Below the pieces are notes generated by a model. That model saw only the letters and a list, made by a program, of their open reading frames with translations. It was not told the origin of the DNA and made no database searches. A stretch of DNA of 64,000 bases from Escherichia coli (lineage in GTDB: Bacteria > Pseudomonadota > Gammaproteobacteria > Enterobacterales > Enterobacteriaceae), in the NCBI RefSeq assembly GCF_041248615.1, contig NZ_CP158426.1, one strand, 5' to 3'. Of this stretch, positions 2,395 through 53,336 are shown one piece after another. The number at the start of each line of letters is the position of its first letter. Positions within the stretch are counted from its first letter, which is position 1. Made by a program: the position numbers and the translations under genes.

Positions 2395-3168
<774 letters not shown>

Positions 3169-3272
3169 ATCAGCATACTTGTCCTTAGCCTTCTGCAGTG
3201 ACAGCTGGTAGTACAGCGTGCTTCTGGCCAGCCCTGCAGCCTTTAACAGGTCAGACTGGCAGTGTCCGCACC

Positions 3273-3803
3273 TCAGGCTCCGGATGACTTTCGTTTTTTC
3301 TCCAGCTCCTGGCGCTTTTTTTCCAGGAGATGCTCCTGCATGGCTTTCAGATATGCATTTTCTGCGCGAAGATAACGCAGCTCATTCTTCATCTCTTCCG
3401 GCGTCATGTTTGCCTCGTTTTCATGGGTATCATCAGAACGGGTCATGCTTTTCTCCTTCCTGCGCCTGATAAAGGCCTCATTACCAGATTTGCGGTAGCC
3501 TTTTATCCAGTTTTTAACCGTGTTGTGGCTGGGAATGTTAAACCGGGCAGCTACCCGGGGTAGAGACTCAGAATGCCCGAGAGCATAAAGAACCACGCAA
3601 AGTTTATCTTCAGGAGAATAGCTACGCTTGTGTCTGCAATCCAGTGCCCGAGGACCGTGAAGAAGAAAAAGATTAATCCAGTGTGAGAGGCTGGTGTGAG
3701 AAAGTTGAAAGAGTTTTGCCGTAGAAATGATGCCTGCATGACCAGCCAGGTAATGATTTACAGCGGCAAGTTTTACTTCAAATGAATGTTTCATAAACTG
3801 CAC
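3273..3803 (-). CDS. IS3-family transposase OrfA (HTH DNA-binding, leucine-zipper C-terminus)
   Basis: 176-aa ORF MKHSFEVKLAAVNHYL... with basic/coiled-coil tail, typical IS3 OrfA. Confidence 0.85.
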   Translation of the reverse strand: MQFMKHSFEVKLAAVNHYLAGHAGIISTAKLFQLSHTSLSHWINLFLLHGPRALDCRHKRSYSPEDKLCVVLYALGHSESLPRVAARFNIPSHNTVKNWIKGYRKSGNEAFIRRRKEKSMTRSDDTHENEANMTPEEMKNELRYLRAENAYLKAMQEHLLEKKRQELEKKRKSSGA

Positions 3804-4453: not shown

Positions 4454-4692
4454 GAGGATATCCTTCAGCATAAATGTAATAGACAAAATGCAGTGTACCG
4501 GATACCGCCAAAAGCGAGAAGTACGGGCAGGTGCTATGACCAGGACTTTTTGACCTGAAGTGCGGATAAAAACAGCAACAATGTGAGCTTTGTTGTAATT
4601 ATATTGTAAACACATTGCTAAATGTTTTTACATCCACTACAACCATATCATCACAAGTGGTCAGACCTCCTACAAGTAAGGGGCTTTTCGTT

Positions 4693-7137
4693 ATGATGAT
4701 TTTGAGTATTCTCGCTACGGTTGTCCTGCTCGGCGCGTTGTTCTATCACCGCGTGAGCTTATTTATCAGCAGTCTGATTTTGCTCGCCTGGACAGCCGCC
4801 CTCGGCGTTGCTGGTCTGTGGTCGGCGTGGGTACTGGTGCCTCTGGCCATTATCCTCGTGCCATTTAACCTTACGCCTATGCGTAAGTCGATGATTTCCG
4901 CGCCGGTATTTCGCGGTTTCCGTAAGGTGATGCCGCCGATGTCGCGCACTGAGAAAGAAGCGATTGATGCGGGCACCACCTGGTGGGAAGGCGATTTGTT
5001 CCAGGGCAAGCCGGACTGGAAAAAGCTGCATAACTATCCGCAGCCGCGCCTGACCGCAGAAGAGCAAGCGTTTCTCGACGGCCCGGTAGAAGAAGCCTGC
5101 CGGATGGCGAATGATTTCCAGATTACTCATGAGCTGGCTGATTTGCCGCCGGAGTTGTGGGCGTACCTTAAAGAGCATCGTTTCTTCGCGATGATCATCA
5201 AAAAAGAGTACGGCGGGCTGGAGTTCTCGGCTTATGCCCAGTCTCGCGTGCTGCAAAAACTCTCCGGCGTGAGCGGGATCCTGGCGATTACCGTCGGCGT
5301 GCCAAACTCATTAGGCCCGGGTGAGCTACTGCAACATTACGGCACTGACGAGCAGAAAGATCACTATCTGCCGCGTCTGGCGCGTGGTCAGGAAATCCCT
5401 TGCTTTGCACTGACCAGCCCGGAAGCGGGTTCCGATGCGGGCGCGATTCCGGATACCGGGATTGTCTGCATGGGCGAATGGCTGGGCCAGCAGGTGCTGG
5501 GCATGCGTCTGACCTGGAACAAGCGTTACATTACGCTGGCACCGATTGCGACTGTGCTTGGCCTGGCGTTTAAACTCTCCGACCCGGAAAAACTGCTGGG
5601 TGGCGCAGAAGATTTAGGTATTACCTGTGCGCTGATCCCGACCACCACGCCGGGCGTGGAAATTGGTCGTCGCCATTTCCCGCTGAACGTACCGTTCCAG
5701 AACGGACCGACGCGCGGTAAAGATGTCTTCGTACCGATCGATTACATTATCGGCGGACCAAAAATGGCCGGGCAAGGCTGGCGGATGCTGGTGGAGTGCC
5801 TCTCGGTAGGCCGCGGTATCACCCTGCCTTCCAACTCAACCGGCGGCGTGAAATCGGTAGCGCTGGCAACGGGTGCGTATGCGCACATCCGCCGTCAGTT
5901 CAAAATCTCTATTGGTAAGATGGAAGGGATTGAAGAGCCGCTGGCGCGTATTGCCGGAAACGCTTATGTAATGGATGCTGCGGCATCGCTGATTACCTAC
6001 GGCATTATGCTCGGTGAAAAACCTGCCGTGCTGTCGGCTATCGTTAAGTATCACTGTACCCACCGCGGGCAGCAGTCGATTATTGATGCGATGGATATCA
6101 CTGGTGGTAAAGGCATTATGCTCGGGCAAAGCAACTTCCTGGCCCGTGCTTACCAGGGCGCACCGATTGCCATCACCGTTGAAGGGGCCAACATTCTGAC
6201 CCGTAGCATGATGATCTTCGGTCAGGGGGCGATTCGTTGCCATCCGTACGTGCTGGAAGAGATGGAAGCGGCGAAGAACAATGACGTAAACGCGTTCGAT
6301 AAACTGCTGTTCAAACATATCGGTCACGTCGGTAGCAACAAAGTTCGCAGCTTCTGGCTGGGCCTGACGCGCGGTTTAACCAGCAGCACGCCAACCGGCG
6401 ATGCCACTAAACGCTACTATCAGCACCTGAACCGCCTGAGCGCCAACCTCGCCCTGCTTTCTGATGTCTCGATGGCTGTGCTGGGCGGCAGCCTGAAACG
6501 TCGCGAGCGTATCTCGGCACGTCTGGGGGATATTTTAAGCCAGCTTTACCTCGCCTCTGCCGTTCTGAAGCGTTATGACGACGAAGGCCGTAATGAAGCC
6601 GACCTGCCGCTGGTGCACTGGGGCGTACAGGATGCGCTGTATCAGGCAGAACAGGCGATGGACGATTTACTGCAAAACTTCCCGAACCGCGTGGTTGCCG
6701 GGCTGCTGAATGTGGTGATCTTCCCGACCGGACGTCATTATCTGGCACCGTCTGACAAGCTGGATCATAAAGTGGCGAAGATTTTACAAGTGCCGAACGC
6801 CACTCGTTCACGTATTGGTCGCGGTCAGTACCTGACGCCAAGCGAGCATAACCCGGTTGGTTTACTGGAAGAGGCGCTGGTGGATGTGATTGCCGCCGAC
6901 CCGATTCATCAGCGGATCTGTAAAGAGCTGGGTAAAAATCTGCCATTTACCCGTCTGGATGAACTGGCGCACAACGCGCTGGCGAAGGGGCTGATTGATA
7001 AAGATGAAGCCGCTATTCTGGTGAAAGCTGAAGAAAGCCGTCTGCGCAGTATTAACGTTGATGACTTTGATCCGGAAGAGCTGGCGACGAAGCCGGTAAA
7101 GTTGCCGGAGAAAGTGCGGAAAGTTGAAGCCGCGTAA
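4693..7137 (+). CDS. fadE: acyl-CoA dehydrogenase
   Basis: ORF 4615..7137 trimmed to ATG 4693 ([14 protein letters not shown]...), 814 aa; N-terminal TM segments plus acyl-CoA dehydrogenase domains. Confidence 0.92.
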
Positions 7138-7179: not shown

Positions 7180-7653
7180 TTATTTAAAATTAAAGCCATC
7201 CGGATGGTTTTCCAGGCTGCCGGTCAACGCCGCGAACAGCACCGTTTTACCATCAATCGAAAGCGCATCGTTCACATTCAACCAGGTGAGTTTCTCTTGC
7301 GACGTTTTCTCATCAATAGTCGAGAATAGCCCCGTCATCTGATTAGATTTCGCGGACCACATCACAGCGATACGTTGCGAGCCACAATCATGCGGTTTGC
7401 ACGCGCTCATCACCTGATACGTCTCATCTCCCAACGTTACGGTTTGTGCGGGAGTATAAGTACCGCCTTTCATCACCCATGCAGGTAGCTTATGCCCTTG
7501 CACCATCTGATTAAACGCAGCTTTGGTGGTTTCGCCCTTTGCAAGGCTGCTAATGGTTAAATCATCCTGCGCCATTGCACTGGTGGCGATGACCAGAGCG
7601 GCAACTGTCGTTATTGCCTTAAACATCATTCCTCCCGAGCTTATCCTGCCCAT
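7180..7653 (-). CDS. ivy: inhibitor of vertebrate (C-type) lysozyme, periplasmic
   Basis: 157-aa ORF with signal peptide and CKPHDCG loop motif; recognised Ivy sequence. Confidence 0.9.
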   Translation of the reverse strand: MGRISSGGMMFKAITTVAALVIATSAMAQDDLTISSLAKGETTKAAFNQMVQGHKLPAWVMKGGTYTPAQTVTLGDETYQVMSACKPHDCGSQRIAVMWSAKSNQMTGLFSTIDEKTSQEKLTWLNVNDALSIDGKTVLFAALTGSLENHPDGFNFK

Positions 7654-7806
7654 GTTATTAACCTCCTAAAGCCTGGCGATAACACGATAATTTGCAAATC
7701 AGATATTTCCAATATCAGCATTTGTTATCAATTTATTCTGCGCTAAGGCAACTGCCTGATAAGGTGTTAGAGTTATAAAACCCTTCGCATAAAGGAGTTG
7801 TACACC

Positions 7807-8577
7807 GTGTCTGGTTTGAAGATTACGCTTTTACAGCAACCACTGGTGTGGATGGATGGTCCTGCCAACCTGCGTCATTTTGATCGTCAACTGGAAGGTA
7901 TTACCGGACGCGATGTGATCGTTCTACCGGAGATGTTTACCAGCGGCTTTGCCATGGAAGCGGCAGCTTCGTCGCTAGCACAAGATGACGTAGTGAACTG
8001 GATGACAGCCAAAGCGCAGCAGTGCAATGCGCTGATTGCAGGCAGTGTTGCATTACAAACGGAGTCTGGTTCGGTTAACCGCTTTTTGCTGGTTGAGCCG
8101 GGCGGCACGGTACATTTTTATGATAAGCGTCATCTGTTCCGCATGGCAGATGAGCATCTACATTATAAAGCGGGCAATGCGCGAGTGATTGTGGAATGGC
8201 GCGGCTGGCGTATTTTGCCGCTGGTGTGCTACGACTTACGTTTTCCGGTGTGGTCGCGCAATCTCAACGATTATGACCTCGCCATCTACGTTGCCAACTG
8301 GCCTGCTCCGCGCTCTCTGCACTGGCAGGCATTGCTGACGGCCCGCGCGATTGAGAATCAGGCGTATGTGGCGGGATGCAATCGCGTCGGCAGCGATGGC
8401 AACGGCTGCCATTATCGCGGTGACAGCCGGGTGATTAATCCACAGGGCGAGATTATCGCTACTGCCGACGCGCATCAGGCAACGCGCATTGATGCGGAGC
8501 TGTCGATGGTGGCATTGCGGGAATATAGAGAAAAGTTTCCGGCATGGCGGGATGCGGATGAGTTTAGGTTGTGGTGA
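7807..8577 (+). CDS. yafV: nitrilase-superfamily omega-amidase (2-oxoglutaramate amidase)
   Basis: ORF 7798..8577; likely GTG start at 7807 (V/MSGLKITLLQQPLVW...); carbon-nitrogen hydrolase fold motifs (EMF, catalytic Cys in LVCYD). Confidence 0.85.
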   Translation: MSGLKITLLQQPLVWMDGPANLRHFDRQLEGITGRDVIVLPEMFTSGFAMEAAASSLAQDDVVNWMTAKAQQCNALIAGSVALQTESGSVNRFLLVEPGGTVHFYDKRHLFRMADEHLHYKAGNARVIVEWRGWRILPLVCYDLRFPVWSRNLNDYDLAIYVANWPAPRSLHWQALLTARAIENQAYVAGCNRVGSDGNGCHYRGDSRVINPQGEIIATADAHQATRIDAELSMVALREYREKFPAWRDADEFRLW

Positions 8578-8671
8578 GTGGGTGTTGTGTTTAGGGGCGG
8601 GGTAAGACTACGGGTCAGGGCAAGATTACGAAAGCCCGGAGCCTGTCCATCATTCTGTGTAAATGCCTTTC

Positions 8672-8990
8672 TCAGAAGTGACCGTCAAGGCGGTCACCGA
8701 ACTCGATAATAAAGCGACTCTTCCCTATCCGCCAGTCCTGAAGTGGCATCGTCCATTTTTGCGACGCTGACTGGAAAGCCAGCCACACCACTTTTTTCAC
8801 CGACTCATCTGTCGGGAACACTTTCCGTTTCTTTATCGCATGTGTGATGATGCTATTCAGCGATTCGATTGCGTTAGTGGTGTAGATAACCTTGCGGATC
8901 GCCTCCGGGTACACGAAGAATGTGGCAACATTCGGCCAGTTTGCCCGCCAGCTGCGACTTATCTGCGGGTACCGTGCATCCCATTCCTTC
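8672..8990 (-). pseudogene. IS256-family (mutator-type) transposase, 3' fragment only
   Basis: Frame translates ...ANWPNVATFFVYPEAIRKVIYTTNAIESLNSIITHAIKKRKVFPTDESVKKVVWLAF..., the C-terminal hallmark of IS256-family transposases; no N-terminal portion present. Confidence 0.6.
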
Positions 8991-9001
8991 CCAGGGAAAG
9001 A

Positions 9002-10119
9002 TTACGAAAGCCCGCTCCCCGCAAGGACTGACGCCAGATAGTTTCTGTCCATGGCTGCTTTTCGCATCTTACGTCTTAACCCTGCCTTGAATACCTTATC
9101 ATTCGTCAAAATATTAATAGCGATGTGCCGTATCCCTGAAAATAATTCTGCTGCATTTCCTCTTCTTATTTTGCAGTCGTCTTCATTCATTACCACGTCC
9201 AGACGCCAGTGCAGCTTATTCTCCACGTGCCAGTGGTTTCGGATTGCTGTGGCGAACTTCTCTGCGGTTAAATCAGCAGAACTAATATAATATCTGACCG
9301 TCATTTCTGGCTCTTTCTTTTGTTCTGCTATTATTGACCGAAAGGAGACTGCCACGCATAATTTCTTCAGACCTTTCCATTCAAACGTGAAATCAATAAG
9401 TTCATCAGGGACATCGCAAACAATGTGAAGACGGATTTCTTCTCTGCCGTGACTCTTTTCACTCATTGCGTAACTGTCATGCTCTGGATTATTTAATTCT
9501 TTCAGCGGAAATTCTCGAAGGCTTTATTTAGCCGCCCCTGGTTTCCTTTTACAGCGAATAAATAATCACCTCCCTGTTTTTGTATCTTCTCTGCAATATC
9601 TTTCTGGCAACCCATCGCATCAGTTGTGATGATTTTTCCTTTAATATCCAGCATGTTAAGAAGTTCTGGGATAGCTGTAATTTCATTGGATTTCTCATCC
9701 GTCCTGATCTGTCCGATGACCAGACTGTGCATTGTTGAGAACGCACTAATGACATGAATCGCTCCCTTGCGGCGACTCTTGTCATAAGAATGCCGGAGTG
9801 TTTTTCCATCAATTGCGATGACGTCTTTATCATCTGAAGTATGGCAATCTCGCATCCAGTTAATAAAGCACTCGTGAAATTTTGCAGGACTGATACAGGA
9901 TACAACTCTGGCGATGGTATCGTGAACAGGAATACCATTTTCAAAATCACCGTATTGTTTTAAAAAATCGAGATGTGTTTCCCCAAAATCCTCTATATCT
10001 TCCCAACCTTCCGCACCCGAAATAACAGCACAAATAGTCAACAGTAGAATATCCGATAATTTATGTTCCACTTTCCAGGCTTGTCTGTAATCGGGGATAA
10101 TAGAAATATGCCCCATCAA
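9002..10119 (-). pseudogene. H-repeat-associated (ISAs1-family) transposase, split into two ORFs by a frame disruption
   Basis: ORFs 9502..10119 (205 aa) and 9002..9466 (154 aa) together match the N- and C-terminal halves of Rhs-associated H-rpt proteins ([40 protein letters not shown] ... [26 protein letters not shown]...[21 protein letters not shown]). Confidence 0.8.
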
Positions 10120-10354
10120 TTTTTTAAGTTCTATTTTGTTCTCCTTAATTATGTAAGGAGTATTTGATCATGTATAAGCAATAAAAAACAGCTTTAGGTA
10201 ATGAGGAATATCTCAATTTTTAAGCATAAAATGCGAATTGTTTAGTACAAAAAAGCAGCGTTACGTGATCTTTCCCTGCACTTCACCCTAACTTTAATTT
10301 AACTTCAAGAAGTATTAAGGCCTCAATAGCGAACTTAATACTTCTTAAAGAATA

Positions 10355-10732
10355 TCACTCCTGACCAAAATCTTTCCACACTAATGCATGAGACTTTGAT
10401 TTATCACCCAAAAATTTACTTACATCTTTCCAAAGTAAAGAATTGCTATCGGTCGCAGTGACTATTGCCTCTATAAGCCCTGTAGCTACAACTGTGGCCA
10501 ATTCATCATCAATCGAGACCATACCATCTTCGACATGTTTAAATATTTTTTCTCTTTCAATATCACCCATTTCATAAAAATTTTTTACAATCGTTTTTCC
10601 AATCTGAGAGAACAACATAACCACCGGTGGAGTTTCTGGATGCCAGTATTCATTAGCTAATGAGACTGTCTCAGACAAAACAGTGGAAAACGATGCCATT
10701 TTTTCTATATAATTAGCAATATATTGGTTCAT
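10355..10732 (-). CDS. putative Rhs immunity protein (cognate to Rhs C-terminal toxin)
   Basis: 125-aa ORF whose ATG overlaps the rhs stop (TAATG at 10730..10734, translational coupling); AT-rich relative to the rhs core; hairpin downstream (10299..10345). No recognisable family. Confidence 0.55.
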   Translation of the reverse strand: MNQYIANYIEKMASFSTVLSETVSLANEYWHPETPPVVMLFSQIGKTIVKNFYEMGDIEREKIFKHVEDGMVSIDDELATVVATGLIEAIVTATDSNSLLWKDVSKFLGDKSKSHALVWKDFGQE

Positions 10733-13700
10733 TACTTGCCTCCCAAAGCATTCTGTAAATCCTGAAGAACGTTTTCTGCTGCTGCTCGATCCCCTGGAGA
10801 TGCTGTTGGATTCTTATCCAACCAATCCTGTAAAGCCCTTGTATAATCCTGTGCTTTCAATACATGTCCTCTACCACCAACTTTTTCACCTGTGGCCAAT
10901 TCATAACGAACAGCATCTGCTGTGCTTCCACTTCCTACTTTTGCATTTGGCCGATAAAGATCGTCTATAATATTTTTCAAATTTGAATCTGTAACGTCAG
11001 GTTTTCCCATCTTCTGTCGCAATTCATCTTTATACCGTTCATGCTGCATACGATCTCTTGCGCTATTCTCATCTTCTGGTCCCCATCCTCCCGGGCTTCC
11101 CGTACTGCCACCACCCAGGCAGTTCTTCTCTTCCTCCGTCAAATCCTTCCCGACATTTGGATTCTCTTTTGATGAATCATCATTTCCAAACACGCTGGAA
11201 AAAGCACCATAGGGATCTCGCCAGAATTCCATTTGACTTTGTGCATTTAATAATTCGGCTTCACCCTGCATCTCCATACTTTTCTCAATCGCGTCCCCAA
11301 CAGCCTCGCGATTGTTGTATATTATTATACCACCACCAATAACCACCGTACCGACTGCCGCACCGACTAACATCCCCGGAGGGCCTCCTACCGAACCGAT
11401 CTCTGTACCTACTTCAGAACCAGTTCCCATGGCAGTTAATGCTCCTGCGCCCAACGCCGCACTTAATCCCAGCGGATCCAGCCGTTGCACCGGGTTCAGT
11501 GGATACGCATACAGGTTCCATCCCCCCTTCAGCCCAATCGGATCCTGGGTGATATACCTCCCCTGTAGCGGGTCATAGTACCGGTGACGGTTGTAGTACA
11601 GCCCCGACTCCTCATCATACTGCTGCCCCGGCAGACGGAGTGACTGTTGAAGGTGCTGCGTGCTTTCCTCTCCCAGCAGGTTTCCCCACTCGTCATACTC
11701 CCCGCGCCACGCCGTTTCCCCTTCCGGGCTGATAAGCGCCTGCGGCAGCCCACGGTGGTCACAGTGGTAAAGATGAAGTTTCCTCTCCGGGATGTATTCC
11801 GCCTCCAGTTGCGCCGCCATCTGTTCCGCCGTCAACCCACACTGTGCAAGCCACTGCTGGCTTTCTTCACTCACGCTGCCCTGCCGCAGTTCCCGCTCCA
11901 GCCTCCCCAGCATCACCGCCAGCTCCGCCGGTAGCGTCACACCCGTGTCCTCCTGCAACACCTCCGCCAGGCTACGGTGCCGCGCCTTCGCCTGTTCGCC
12001 ATTCTCTGTTTCGATTCTCAGGAGCGGCGTGAAGCTCCCCGGCTGGTATACCGTCTGGATACGCGTGGTGTCGGTCTGTACCGTCGTCAGCCTGTCGCCG
12101 TCCCACCCGTACCAGGTCACCTCCGGTTTACGCGACAGCGACATCCACCCCGTCAGGTCACGCTCCCGCCGCCACACCCGTTTTCCCGTCCGGCGGCCCA
12201 GCGGGTCATAGAGGTAGCGGCTCTCCACCTGTGGCTCGCCGTGCTGTATCCGCGTGTAGAACACCAGGCGGTGCTGGCTGTCGTAATGGTAGTGGTGCGT
12301 CCGCTCGTCGTGCATCCGTATCACCCCTTCCGGGATACGGTCCGTCTTCTCCGCCAGCCTGCCGTATTCATCGTAGCGGTAGACATAGTGCGCATCTTCC
12401 GTGATGCGGTTATCCGGCCACGCCGTGAAGGTGCTGTCCGGGTGCAGTTCCGGGTCCGGCAGCCGGTTTCCTGCCGGGTCCGTCGCATACGGGATATCAA
12501 TGTCCAGGTTCGCTGCCGTGGTGTGGACGCCCGTCAGCCTTCCCGTGTCGCTGTAACGGTACTCCCGGCTCTCCTGCGGGCCGCTGATGCGAATTAGCTG
12601 TCCGTTGTCGTTCCAGTCGTAGTCACGGTCAAGCTGCGGAAGGTTCAGGTGCCTGCTCCGGAGCTGGCCGCTGGTATTCCAGGCGGTGGCAAGCTCATAT
12701 GCCTCCCCGCCGAAGCTGCGGGCCGTCTCACGGTGCAGCCGGTCCCGCGTGTACTCGACCAGTGGCGTACCACCCAGCTTCATTCCCGCAAGATAACCGC
12801 TGCCATACGTCAGCCACTCCACCGGCGGCAGACCGTCCGGCTCCTGACGGGTCGCCAGCCCCTGTTCGCTGTACGCGTGCTTCGTCTCATGCTCCCACAG
12901 CATCTCCCCCGTCTCCGGGTTCTCCACCGTCTGCCGTTCGCCCGTCAGGCGGCCTTTATCGTCGTGGCCGTAGTGGACCGCCACACGGTGGCCTTCGCTG
13001 ATATGGCTGATTTCTGTCAGCCAGCCGTGCTCATCATACTGCCACTGCTCCGCCGGGTCGCCGTTCACCGTCCGGTGCGTGATGCGGTCCGACGCATCGT
13101 AATGCCAGAGGGTGATAAGCCCCTCATCTTCACTCTGCGTGAGTTTTCCGGTCAGGTCATAGTGGTAACGTTGCGTCCGCCCGTCAAAGCCGCGCTGCTC
13201 CGTCAGCCTGTCCACCGGGTCATACCGGAACGTGGACTGGCTGCCGTTCTCGTTGGTCAGCACGGTGGTGCGACCGGCGGCGTCATACCCCATGCTGCGC
13301 GTCAGTCCGCCTTCCGTCACACTCACCGGACGCCCGCGTTTATCATATTCGATGGTGCTGCGTTTACCGTCCGGTGATATCGTCGCTGTCAGGTCGCCTG
13401 CGGTGCTGTACTCATAACGGGTTTCACGCCCCTGCGCATCCTTCTGACTGACCAGTTGGCCACGCGGGTTATAACTGCTGTAAGTGCTGATGCCTTCTTC
13501 CCGGTGAACGGCGATTTGTTGACCGTACCGGTCATACTCATACCGCGTCGTGTACCCCGAGCAGTCCGTAAACGCCTGAAGCTGACCGTACCGGTTTCGC
13601 GTTATTCTCCGCATCACCCCGGTTCCGTCTTCCACCGCGCCGGGCAGGCTACTGCGGGGGGAGTCATAAAACCAGCGCGTAATGTTACCGTTGCGCGAGA

Positions 13701-15231
13701 TCTCTTCCGCCAGCCTGCCCTGACGGTCATATTTCCGGCTGCTGCGCAGCCCGTCCGGGTACGTCACTGACGTCAGTTGCAACTGGTTGTTGTAACCATA
13801 CCGTACCGTCCTGCCGTCCGGAAGTATCACTGAAGTCAGCTTTCCAGACGCCATATGCAGCCGATACTCCGTCCGCCGTCCCGCCGCATCCGTCTGCGCC
13901 TTCAGCCTCCCCGCCTCATCATACTCGCTGCGGGTGATGCTCCCGTCCGCATGTTCCTTCTTCACCACCCGCTTCAGGCCACCTTCGCCTTCCGTGTACA
14001 GCACCTCCCGCCTGTTCAGGCTGTCCGTGATGATTACCCGGCTCTCTCCGTACTCAAAGCGGTAGTCCAGCCCCTCCGGGTTGACCTGCTCCGTCACCCG
14101 GCCGGTATCATCATACCGGTAGCGGCTCTCCGGCCTCCCCGCATAATGGTGCGCCACCATCCGCCCGGCGTGCGCCACATCATAAGTAACCCCGCGCACC
14201 TGCGTCCCGCTGCGGTCATACACCGCCCGCAGTTCTCCGCTGGCCGTGTACGTGTAGCGCGCCAGCGGCGCAGTCGGCTGTTCATCCGGGTATGCCGGGT
14301 CGTGTGTCAGCCACACCGCCTCCAGCCGGATACCGTTATCGGCACCGTATTCTGTACCGACGGGCAGCGTATCGGGGAAAACCTGAGAAGAGGAAACAGA
14401 ACGGGGACCGGCAGGGGAAGATAAGGAAGACTCGCGCTGTTTACGGGACGCTTCCGCCCGCTGTGACTGTGTGGTCAGCGCCAGGTGAAAACAGCGGCCC
14501 GCGCCGTCCGTCACCCTGGTGATTTCACCAGCCAGTTCGCCTGCGGCCTCGCGGTGGAAAGTCAGTGAACGCCCGAAGCCGTCCACCACGCCCGTCAGCA
14601 CCCGGTATGCGGGTGGCTCCGGCGGCAACACCTCGTCCACCCCCGGCACCCGCTCCGGCCAGCCGAGTACCAGCCACTGCCCGGTTGTGCTGACAGCCAT
14701 CATATAGGTGTGTGGACTCAGGCGGACCGCTTCCGGCAACGCCCGCCAGAGCCGGGCCAGCGGGTGGCCTTTCTGCTGTTTCAGCACCCCGCCCCGCGCC
14801 AGCCAGAACGACTCGCTGCGGCTGTAGCTTATCTCGCCGGGAAACAGCGGCTCAAAGTGAATGCTCCTGCCGCCGCTGTCGTTGAGTATCAGGCCTTCAT
14901 CGCGTATCTGTAAGCGGATATCGAAGGGGGCTTTCCAGCCGGGACCAAACACCCCCACCGGCGCGGGCGTCCTGGTCCGGTAGCTGCTGTAGGCGCGGAA
15001 AAGAACAAACGGCAGCGGGCCGGACAGTGCCAGGTCGGTTTCAGCAGGCAGCACCTTCGCTCCCAGCAGCGGGTTTACCGGATTACCCTTCTGCTCCTCT
15101 ATCGGGCTGTTGGGACATACCGAACAGGCCACACCGGTTGGCGCACCTATCAGCACCCCTGCTGAACCCTGCACAATATCCAGTCCCTTGCGGGTCATGT
15201 CACCCTGCCGCGCCGCCGGTTTTCCACCCAT
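10732..15231 (-). CDS. PAAR-domain Rhs-family T6SS effector with divergent C-terminal toxin domain
   Basis: 1499-aa ORF; N-terminal PAAR-like domain ([16 protein letters not shown]...), many YD/RHS repeats (RYxYD), Rhs core end with DPxGL motif ([27 protein letters not shown]), then a 243-aa C-terminal tail (about 10735..11463). Confidence 0.9.
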
Positions 15232-49721: not shown

Positions 49722-49798
49722 TGGCGGAACGGACGGGACTCGAACCCGCGACCCCCTGCGTGACAGGCAGGTATTCTAACCGACTGAACTACCGCTCC
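49722..49798 (-). tRNA. aspU: tRNA-Asp (GUC), distal tRNA of rrn operon
   Basis: Identical 77-nt tRNA-Asp sequence on minus strand. Confidence 0.95.
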
Positions 49799-53141: not shown

Positions 53142-53217
53142 TGGTGGAGCTATGCGGGATCGAACCGCAGACCTCCTGCGTGCAAAGCAGGCGCTCTCCC
53201 AGCTGAGCTATAGCCCC
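53142..53217 (-). tRNA. alaV: tRNA-Ala (UGC), rrn spacer tRNA
   Basis: Reverse complement GGGGCTATAGCTCAGCTGGGAGAGCGCCTGCTTTGCACGCAGGAGGTCTGCGGTTCGATCCCGCATAGCTCCACCA. Confidence 0.95.
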
Positions 53218-53259
53218 ATAACATGTAGTTAAAACCTCTTCAAATTTGCGGTGCAAATT

Positions 53260-53336
<77 letters not shown>

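Follow-up and report, generated by a model that had tools for sequence, protein, structure and literature searches.

The closest described relatives of this locus are the H-rpt (ISEc1) elements of Escherichia coli K-12, which lie downstream of Rhs elements. H-rpt belongs to the ISAs1 family, whose members in ISfinder are about 1.2-1.5 kb long and have imperfect terminal inverted repeats beginning with CAGGG. One K-12 remnant of H-rpt, of about 280-290 nt, is yafF (b4503, between yafV and yafU), which was fused to yafU by a deletion of about 30 kb of the type VI secretion system (T6SS) island. The second relative is IS1414, an IS256-family element, of which ten intact copies are 1,315 bp long and have perfect 8-bp target duplications. 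Nested remnants of insertion sequences, including solo terminal repeats, are known at island borders from general insertion sequence biology.

We analysed a 64,000-nt stretch of E. coli DNA (the window) and compared its H-rpt region with these systems. The element at 8992-10278 has the transposase domains, length, CAGGG ends and imperfect inverted repeats of H-rpt/ISEc1, and it lies downstream of an rhs immunity gene, as the K-12 copies lie downstream of Rhs elements. Unlike them, it carries a 4-nt frameshifting deletion and an ATA start, lacks a target duplication and has two extra solo right ends upstream. The yafF remnant appears to derive from the same ancestral H-rpt at the T6SS island edge as the window junction, with its right end at an equal distance from the yafV stop codon, but the window keeps only about 15 nt of that element. 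Nearby is an IS256-family fragment that resembles IS1414 in its right terminal repeat pattern, GAGCCTGTnnAnnATTCTGTGTAAAT, and in the C-terminus of its transposase, whereas it is only about 80% identical, retains 353 of about 1,315 nt and is without the astA region. At pptA-ydcC, an intact IS1414 itself interrupts an H-rpt, 31 nt from its right end. As in other nested remnants at island borders, the window elements are truncated, interrupt each other and have lost their partner halves to deletion or recombination. Nothing fundamental sets them apart from such remnants, and a near-identical layout found twice, at yafV and at pptA-ydcC, is the sole unusual point. At this edge of the E. coli T6SS island, mobile elements that landed in one another have left an ordinary scar.

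The gene order in the window is fadE (4615-7137, plus strand), ivy (7180-7653, minus strand) and yafV (7798-8577, plus strand). Past yafV follow, all on the minus strand, the IS256-family fragment, the H-rpt transposase in two parts, an rhs immunity-like gene and a Rhs core protein. Farther into the island are VgrG, TssC, TssF, TssK, ClpV, TssM and TssA, and then tRNA-Asp (aspV) at 41499. The alignment of K-12 MG1655 to the window runs up to 8638 and resumes at 39403. The K-12 pseudogene yafF, an H-rpt remnant of 280 nt, matches window positions 9003-9282. About 30 kb of the island (9283-39402) are missing from K-12, which keeps only the yafF remnant beside yafV, and this agrees with the earlier note, in which the region was placed at the yafV-proximal edge of the island. 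An Rfam search of 8300-10800 for structured RNA gave no match at E ≤ 1. The pipeline of NCBI already annotates both transposase pieces as pseudogenes ('transposase, partial' and 'ISAs1 family transposase, frameshifted'). The present analysis turns these two vague calls into exact element boundaries, which has little significance beyond annotation. The pieces have the following identities, boundaries and orientations, with the basis of each in brackets.

8598-8612, minus strand: stub a, putatively the oldest H-rpt right end, first ~15 nt, CGGGGTAAGACTACG (synteny)
8613-8615, no strand: GGT, three bases separating stub a from stub b (read from the sequence)
8616-8638, minus strand: stub b (repeat copy 1), which is a second H-rpt's right inverted repeat, nt 1-23, truncated by the IS256-type terminus (match to the ydcC-type end)
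8639-8991, minus strand: IS1414-related right-hand piece of an IS256-family element, 353 nt (homology, Pfam PF00872, NCBIfam NF033543)
8992-10278, minus strand: H-rpt c, complete, ISEc1-type, ISAs1 family, 1,287 bp (inverted repeat pair, alignment to intact copies)
8992-9016, minus strand: right inverted repeat of H-rpt c (contains repeat copy 2, 8992-9014)
10254-10278, minus strand: left inverted repeat of H-rpt c (partner of the right arm)
10279-10354, minus strand: spacer that follows the rhs immunity gene and is contiguous with the left end of H-rpt c (inverted repeat pair, comparison with MY732)
10355-10732, minus strand: rhs immunity-like gene (type VI secretion island context)
10732-15231, minus strand: Rhs core protein (type VI secretion island context)

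The 23-bp repeat is present as CAGGGCAAGATTACGAAAGCCCG at 8616-8638 (copy 1) and as CAGGGAAAGATTACGAAAGCCCG at 8992-9014 (copy 2), and 22 of the 23 positions are identical in the repeat search. The earlier note had reported both copies and their single mismatch correctly, but had ended copy 2 one base early, at 9013. With up to three mismatches allowed, the 23-mer was found at no other place in the 64-kb window. A chance repeat was ruled out, as none of 100 dinucleotide-preserving shuffles gave any match. Copy 2 overlaps the H-rpt stop codon (9002-9004), as had been described. It also belongs to an arm of a 25-nt terminal inverted repeat, which had been missed; the other arm is at 10254-10278. 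Independent H-rpt copies all start at CAGGG, and the DNA outside is unrelated (ggtaa/CAGGG, aatgc/CAGGG and atacc/CAGGG). Because copy 2 bounds a 1,287-bp element that aligns end to end and the independent copies start at CAGGG, these comparisons identify the 23-mer as the terminal inverted repeat on the right side of an H-rpt of the ISEc1 type (ISAs1 family). The earlier note had taken the repeat as the H-rpt 3' terminus and had proposed that an intact reference with a different terminus would contradict it. The intact H-rpt references begin exactly at CAGGG, and the proposal stands. The presence of the repeat twice in the same orientation is probably owing to several mobile elements nested inside one another.

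The H-rpt bounded by copy 2 (H-rpt c) has arms of 25 nt that are 80% complementary, with CAGGG at both ends. Its length becomes 1,291 bp with the 4 missing nucleotides restored, and both length and ends are those of the ISAs1 family. It aligns end to end with the Rb-50 H-rpt copies at 96-97% identity, and the homology of thousands of H-rpt copies stops at window position 10278/10279. The transposase is split into two minus-strand ORFs (9502-10119 and 9002-9466), in line with the first description of a gene broken in two. The ORF halves carry DDE_Tnp_1_assoc (PF13808, E = 8e-34) and DDE_Tnp_1 (PF01609), the domains expected for ISAs1. Intact copies have four nucleotides (TTTC) after 9513 that the window lacks, and this 4-nt deletion splits the gene by shifting its frame from about codon 205 onward. 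The strain CFSAN061763 (L011) has the identical layout of stub, IS256 piece, H-rpt and immunity gene with only five substitutions, and its transposase frame of 378 codons is uninterrupted. The L011 orthologue scores 418 bits against the NCBIfam ISAs1-family equivalog (cut-off 70) and is named by NCBI as 'ISAs1-like element ISEc1 family transposase'. Since L011 combines this layout with an uninterrupted frame, the frameshift is a recent, lineage-specific lesion. The H-rpt transposase had been called decayed, which is true, but the decay is milder than implied, given the uninterrupted frame in this sister strain. The canonical start codon is ATA in the window (10132-10134, minus strand) and in L011 (5550-5552), and both have an in-frame ATG at codon 7. 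The L011 gene, with ATA at its canonical start, is annotated as intact by NCBI.

We found no target duplication of about 8-10 bp around H-rpt c, and its flanks ccattccttcc and cacttcaccc share no repeat. The left flank is the immunity-gene spacer and the right flank is IS256 sequence. The lack of a target duplication fits flanks derived from different events, and it does not affect the family assignment. In MY732 (L010) the homologous spacer runs about 215 nt longer before its own H-rpt. The MY732 segment 2501-5141, in the pptA-ydcC Rhs locus, was compared with window 10280-12887. Identity is about 96% for the immunity gene and its spacer, and about 88% for the C-terminal region of Rhs, which suggests that Rhs tips may be exchanged between chromosomal loci. 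The spacer in the window also contains a 17-nt inverted repeat (10303-10319 and 10334-10350) that is 94% complementary with a 14-nt loop, just 3' of the immunity gene on the minus strand. This hairpin (10303-10350) is possibly a terminator.

The whole gap between the repeat copies, 8639-8991, is occupied by IS256-type homology, which had also been missed. It consists of the terminal repeat GAGCCTGTCCATCATTCTGTGTAAAT and the C-terminus of the transposase (a pseudogene, ORF 8672-8914). The identity of the fragment is 95-96% with the IS256-family copies of L002, L003 and L006, and about 80% with IS1414. Its right terminus, GAGCCTGT..., begins at 8639 and can be aligned to the same end of IS1414 and of related copies. 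In all copies compared, the flanks diverge immediately outside GAGCCTGT, so that this end is a terminal inverted repeat. The other boundary, 8991, falls inside the element, about 353 nt from its right end, at a break where other copies go on with cgaacgcatccagcg. The left ~960 nt of about 1,315 are gone, and the piece is a fragment rather than a full-length element of about 1.3 kb. The ORF (minus strand, 80 residues) matches Pfam Transposase_mut (PF00872) at positions 324-377 of 379 with 40.8 bits (cut-off 21). It also matches NCBIfam IS256 at positions 266-336 of 338 with 70 bits, to be read against a whole-protein cut-off of 150, as only the C-terminal ~100 residues are represented. A longer IS256-family copy in E. 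coli C scores 404 bits in the same model. The matches to the last 54 positions of Transposase_mut and to the end of the NCBIfam model bear out the original reading of a C-terminal fragment of an IS256-family transposase. A remnant of astA/EAST1, located at about positions 420-540 of IS1414, was sought in the fragment and was absent. The fragment belongs to a sister element of IS1414, seen mostly as decayed copies.

Target duplications of 8 bp, where 8-9 bp are expected for the IS256 family, were seen in 11 of 11 intact IS1414 insertions examined. The IS1414 of cS100a (L005), for example, bears CTCCCCGT on both sides. For the fragment in the window the expected duplication copy is AAAGCCCG, and its partner side would have been deleted together with the left end.

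Two further H-rpt ends lie between yafV and this fragment. In K-12, Rb-50 and wlxctx60, H-rpt sequence starts about 30 nt past the yafV stop codon with the right end C[A/G]GGGTA..ACTACGAAAGCCCGCTCCCC... and runs on from there. Stub a occupies this place in the window and appears to be the same H-rpt that K-12 retains as yafF. Stub a is only 10-15 nt long, and its assignment rests on synteny because 15-mers of equal quality arise by chance: a 15-mer with three mismatches to stub a was also found elsewhere in the window. The yafV spacer (window 8590-8602) has lost 10 nt between two CGGGG repeats compared with K-12, Rb-50 and wlxctx60, which looks like a slippage deletion. Due to this loss, the first 5 nt of stub a are ambiguous. 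The GGT at 8613-8615 matches neither an H-rpt end nor the spacer of other strains, and it is unexplained in the nested-insertion account given below.

Stub b begins with the family end CAGGG, and the ydcC-type H-rpt end of L005 and L017 has exactly its sequence at nt 1-23. The IS256-type homology begins at the base directly after it (8639). Stub b and repeat copy 2 belong to different H-rpt copies. An origin of stub b as a tandem duplication of stub a was ruled out, because 4 of 18 positions differ while stub b is identical to the ydcC-type end.

The arrangement is likely the product of nested insertions whose right-hand halves were later deleted. An old H-rpt (a) would have been present about 30 nt after yafV, as it still is in K-12 and other strains. 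A second H-rpt (b) may then have been placed 15 nt inside the right end of a, and an IS256-family element resembling IS1414 would have entered b at 23 nt from its right terminus. The predicted left-side junction of this insertion is the IS256 left end followed by AAAGCCCGCTCCCC. The right terminus of another H-rpt (c) would next have joined an internal site of the IS256 element, 353 nt from its right end, and all DNA from that site to the body of c would have been lost. The loss could have occurred by homologous recombination that collapsed directly repeated 1.3-kb H-rpt copies, or by a deletion made by the H-rpt end itself. The left stubs alone would survive since 15 and 23 nt are too short to recombine. 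All junctions at an element terminus are exact to the base, with an ambiguity of only 1-3 nt (C at 8991, CAG in L017), which points to joins made by a transposase. A simple deletion after one IS256 insertion was ruled out, because the H-rpt past the fragment starts at nt 1 and not at nt 16. The reciprocal junction, in which the remainder of the IS256 element would adjoin an H-rpt left end, was absent from 5,426 complete genomes. None of the 25 best-ranked records had stub a and GGT followed by a full H-rpt b without the IS256 piece; every one was a two-piece match of the window type. The junction is a non-functional scar, and no function is indicated.

We examined how widely the layout is distributed. 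Among 5,426 complete genomes, 266 have the junction of yafV, stub and IS256 piece, 268 have that of the H-rpt left end with the immunity spacer, and 274 have the whole 2-kb layout, which is also found in two metagenome contigs. The junction is a clean lineage marker carried by about 270 of these genomes, a subset of which has the 4-bp deletion. Among the genomes listed with the layout, the segment 8578-8995 is present at one place each (two in one genome), and the copies checked for context are all beside yafV. A different junction is found at the same locus in wlxctx60 (L002) and in a metagenome contig, where a like IS256 element is located 40 nt into H-rpt a and is then fused by deletion to a truncated Rhs. 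This nt-40 junction requires either two independent insertions at one spot or an extra rearrangement. In wlxctx60 (L002 ~3005-3010), the IS256-type fragment of about 510 nt is joined directly to the interior of the Rhs core gene. Deletion at this hot spot has had another outcome there than in the window.

Comparable structures are present at pptA-ydcC. In cS100a, an intact IS1414 is inserted 31 nt into the H-rpt right end with CTCCCCGT as the flanking duplication. In VREC0864 (L017 3588-5542, NZ_LR536431.1), a 16-nt H-rpt stub is followed by 648 nt of an IS256-type right end and then by a complete H-rpt from nt 1. This layout, also seen in L016, is found in eight complete genomes and one metagenome contig. 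Because its architecture matches that of the window while the breakpoints differ, the succession of stub, IS256 piece and full H-rpt arose independently at pptA-ydcC. In 2020N21-246, about 497 nt of the IS256-type right end directly adjoin an H-rpt left end. Rb-50 (L007 3629-6133) has a tandem H-rpt pair beside yafV, in which the first copy breaks off ~77 nt before its end, directly at nt 1 of the second. The right terminus of an H-rpt is there directly against an internal site of another H-rpt. A vgrG fragment follows the second H-rpt of Rb-50, and the island is largely deleted.

These structures bear on how the junction was formed. The earlier note suggested that the IS256-type fragment came in by a rearrangement in which the 3' terminus of H-rpt was duplicated. 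On such a reading, the two 23-mers would be a by-product of one event, resembling a target duplication. The copies bracket the fragment exactly and differ at one base, as such a by-product might. However, IS1414 gives 8-bp and not 23-bp duplications in all 11 cases, and the join at 8991/8992 connects an internal IS256 position, not an IS256 end, to nt 1 of H-rpt. The repeat begins exactly at the H-rpt terminus, which indicates the chemistry of an H-rpt end rather than of IS256. The two ends come from different H-rpts, a third and older end lies upstream, and the parallel at pptA has a 16-nt repeat with another IS256 breakpoint. We therefore consider this origin highly improbable and do not retain it. 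A deletion made in a single step deserves more weight, although it too is on the unlikely side. The right end of a neighbouring intact H-rpt of the same orientation would have attacked the IS256-type element by one-sided intramolecular transposition, deleting the intervening DNA and requiring neither a prior insertion nor homologous recombination. Precise joins of the H-rpt right terminus to internal sites of neighbours, without target duplication, are found in the window, L017 and Rb-50; tandem H-rpts exist at the yafV locus; and no insertion intermediate was found in the 5,426 complete genomes. Yet the transposition chemistry of the ISAs1 family is not established, and no transposition of H-rpt had been observed, according to the E. 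coli W genome paper (PMC3032704). Most strains have a single H-rpt at pptA-ydcC, so a second donor copy must be assumed there, and the end product would be identical to that of an insertion followed by recombination.

It may also be asked if the two kinds of element target each other, so that insertions of IS1414-like elements would favour the final 16-40 nt on the right side of H-rpt, H-rpt ends would favour those IS256-type copies, and reproducible scars would result. Four IS256-family junctions lie in the H-rpt right end in one orientation, at nt 16 (L017), 23 (window), 31 (L005) and 40 (L002 and L014), and three H-rpt termini are joined to the interior of IS256-type sequence, namely those of the window and L017 and, with its orientation reversed, that of L006. 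This clustering must be read with the search in mind, since the nt-16 case came from a pattern that admitted positions 15-45 only. A genome scan of right-end flanks required TTTNCTCAG, which excludes the window-type terminus, and it gave nine loci of related elements only. None of ten recent IS1414 insertions is in an H-rpt end, all being elsewhere, and strict targeting of H-rpt ends by IS1414 is not supported. A related element in Acerihabitans has copies with unrelated flanks. Survivorship may explain the clustering as well, because deep insertions in a multicopy H-rpt could be erased by recombination and those near the tip could not. Mutual targeting is accordingly quite doubtful. If it were true, it would be a repeatable pathway in which a fresh H-rpt right end lands again in an IS256-type element and restores a complete H-rpt. 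The scars of stub, IS256 piece and H-rpt that it leaves at different Rhs loci would then be natural evidence of H-rpt end transposition activity. It is scarcely credible that 8616-10278 is itself a larger mobile unit, running from stub b to the H-rpt left end with the IS256 piece as a passenger. Stub b and 10254-10278 do make a proper pair of inverted H-rpt ends, but the transposase is frameshifted in the window and the segment keeps to its place beside yafV in the genomes described above. No second copy of this composite was seen. Nested insertions followed by loss of the right-hand halves remain our preferred account of the junction.

Of wider interest are the precise joins, seen at several loci, between the right terminus of H-rpt and sites within other elements. 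Such joins are indirect evidence and may reflect past activity of H-rpt ends.

The window has other features outside the junction. An IS3-family element is located between yafJ and gmhA (2446-3803, minus strand), with one ORF at 2446-3168 that carries HTH_21, rve and rve_2 and another at 3273-3803 that carries HTH_28 and HTH_Tnp_1. Two copies of tRNA-Asp(GTC) are present, at 41499-41575 and 49722-49798, and tRNA-Ala and tRNA-Ile are found at 53142-53336, arranged as in a ribosomal RNA operon spacer.
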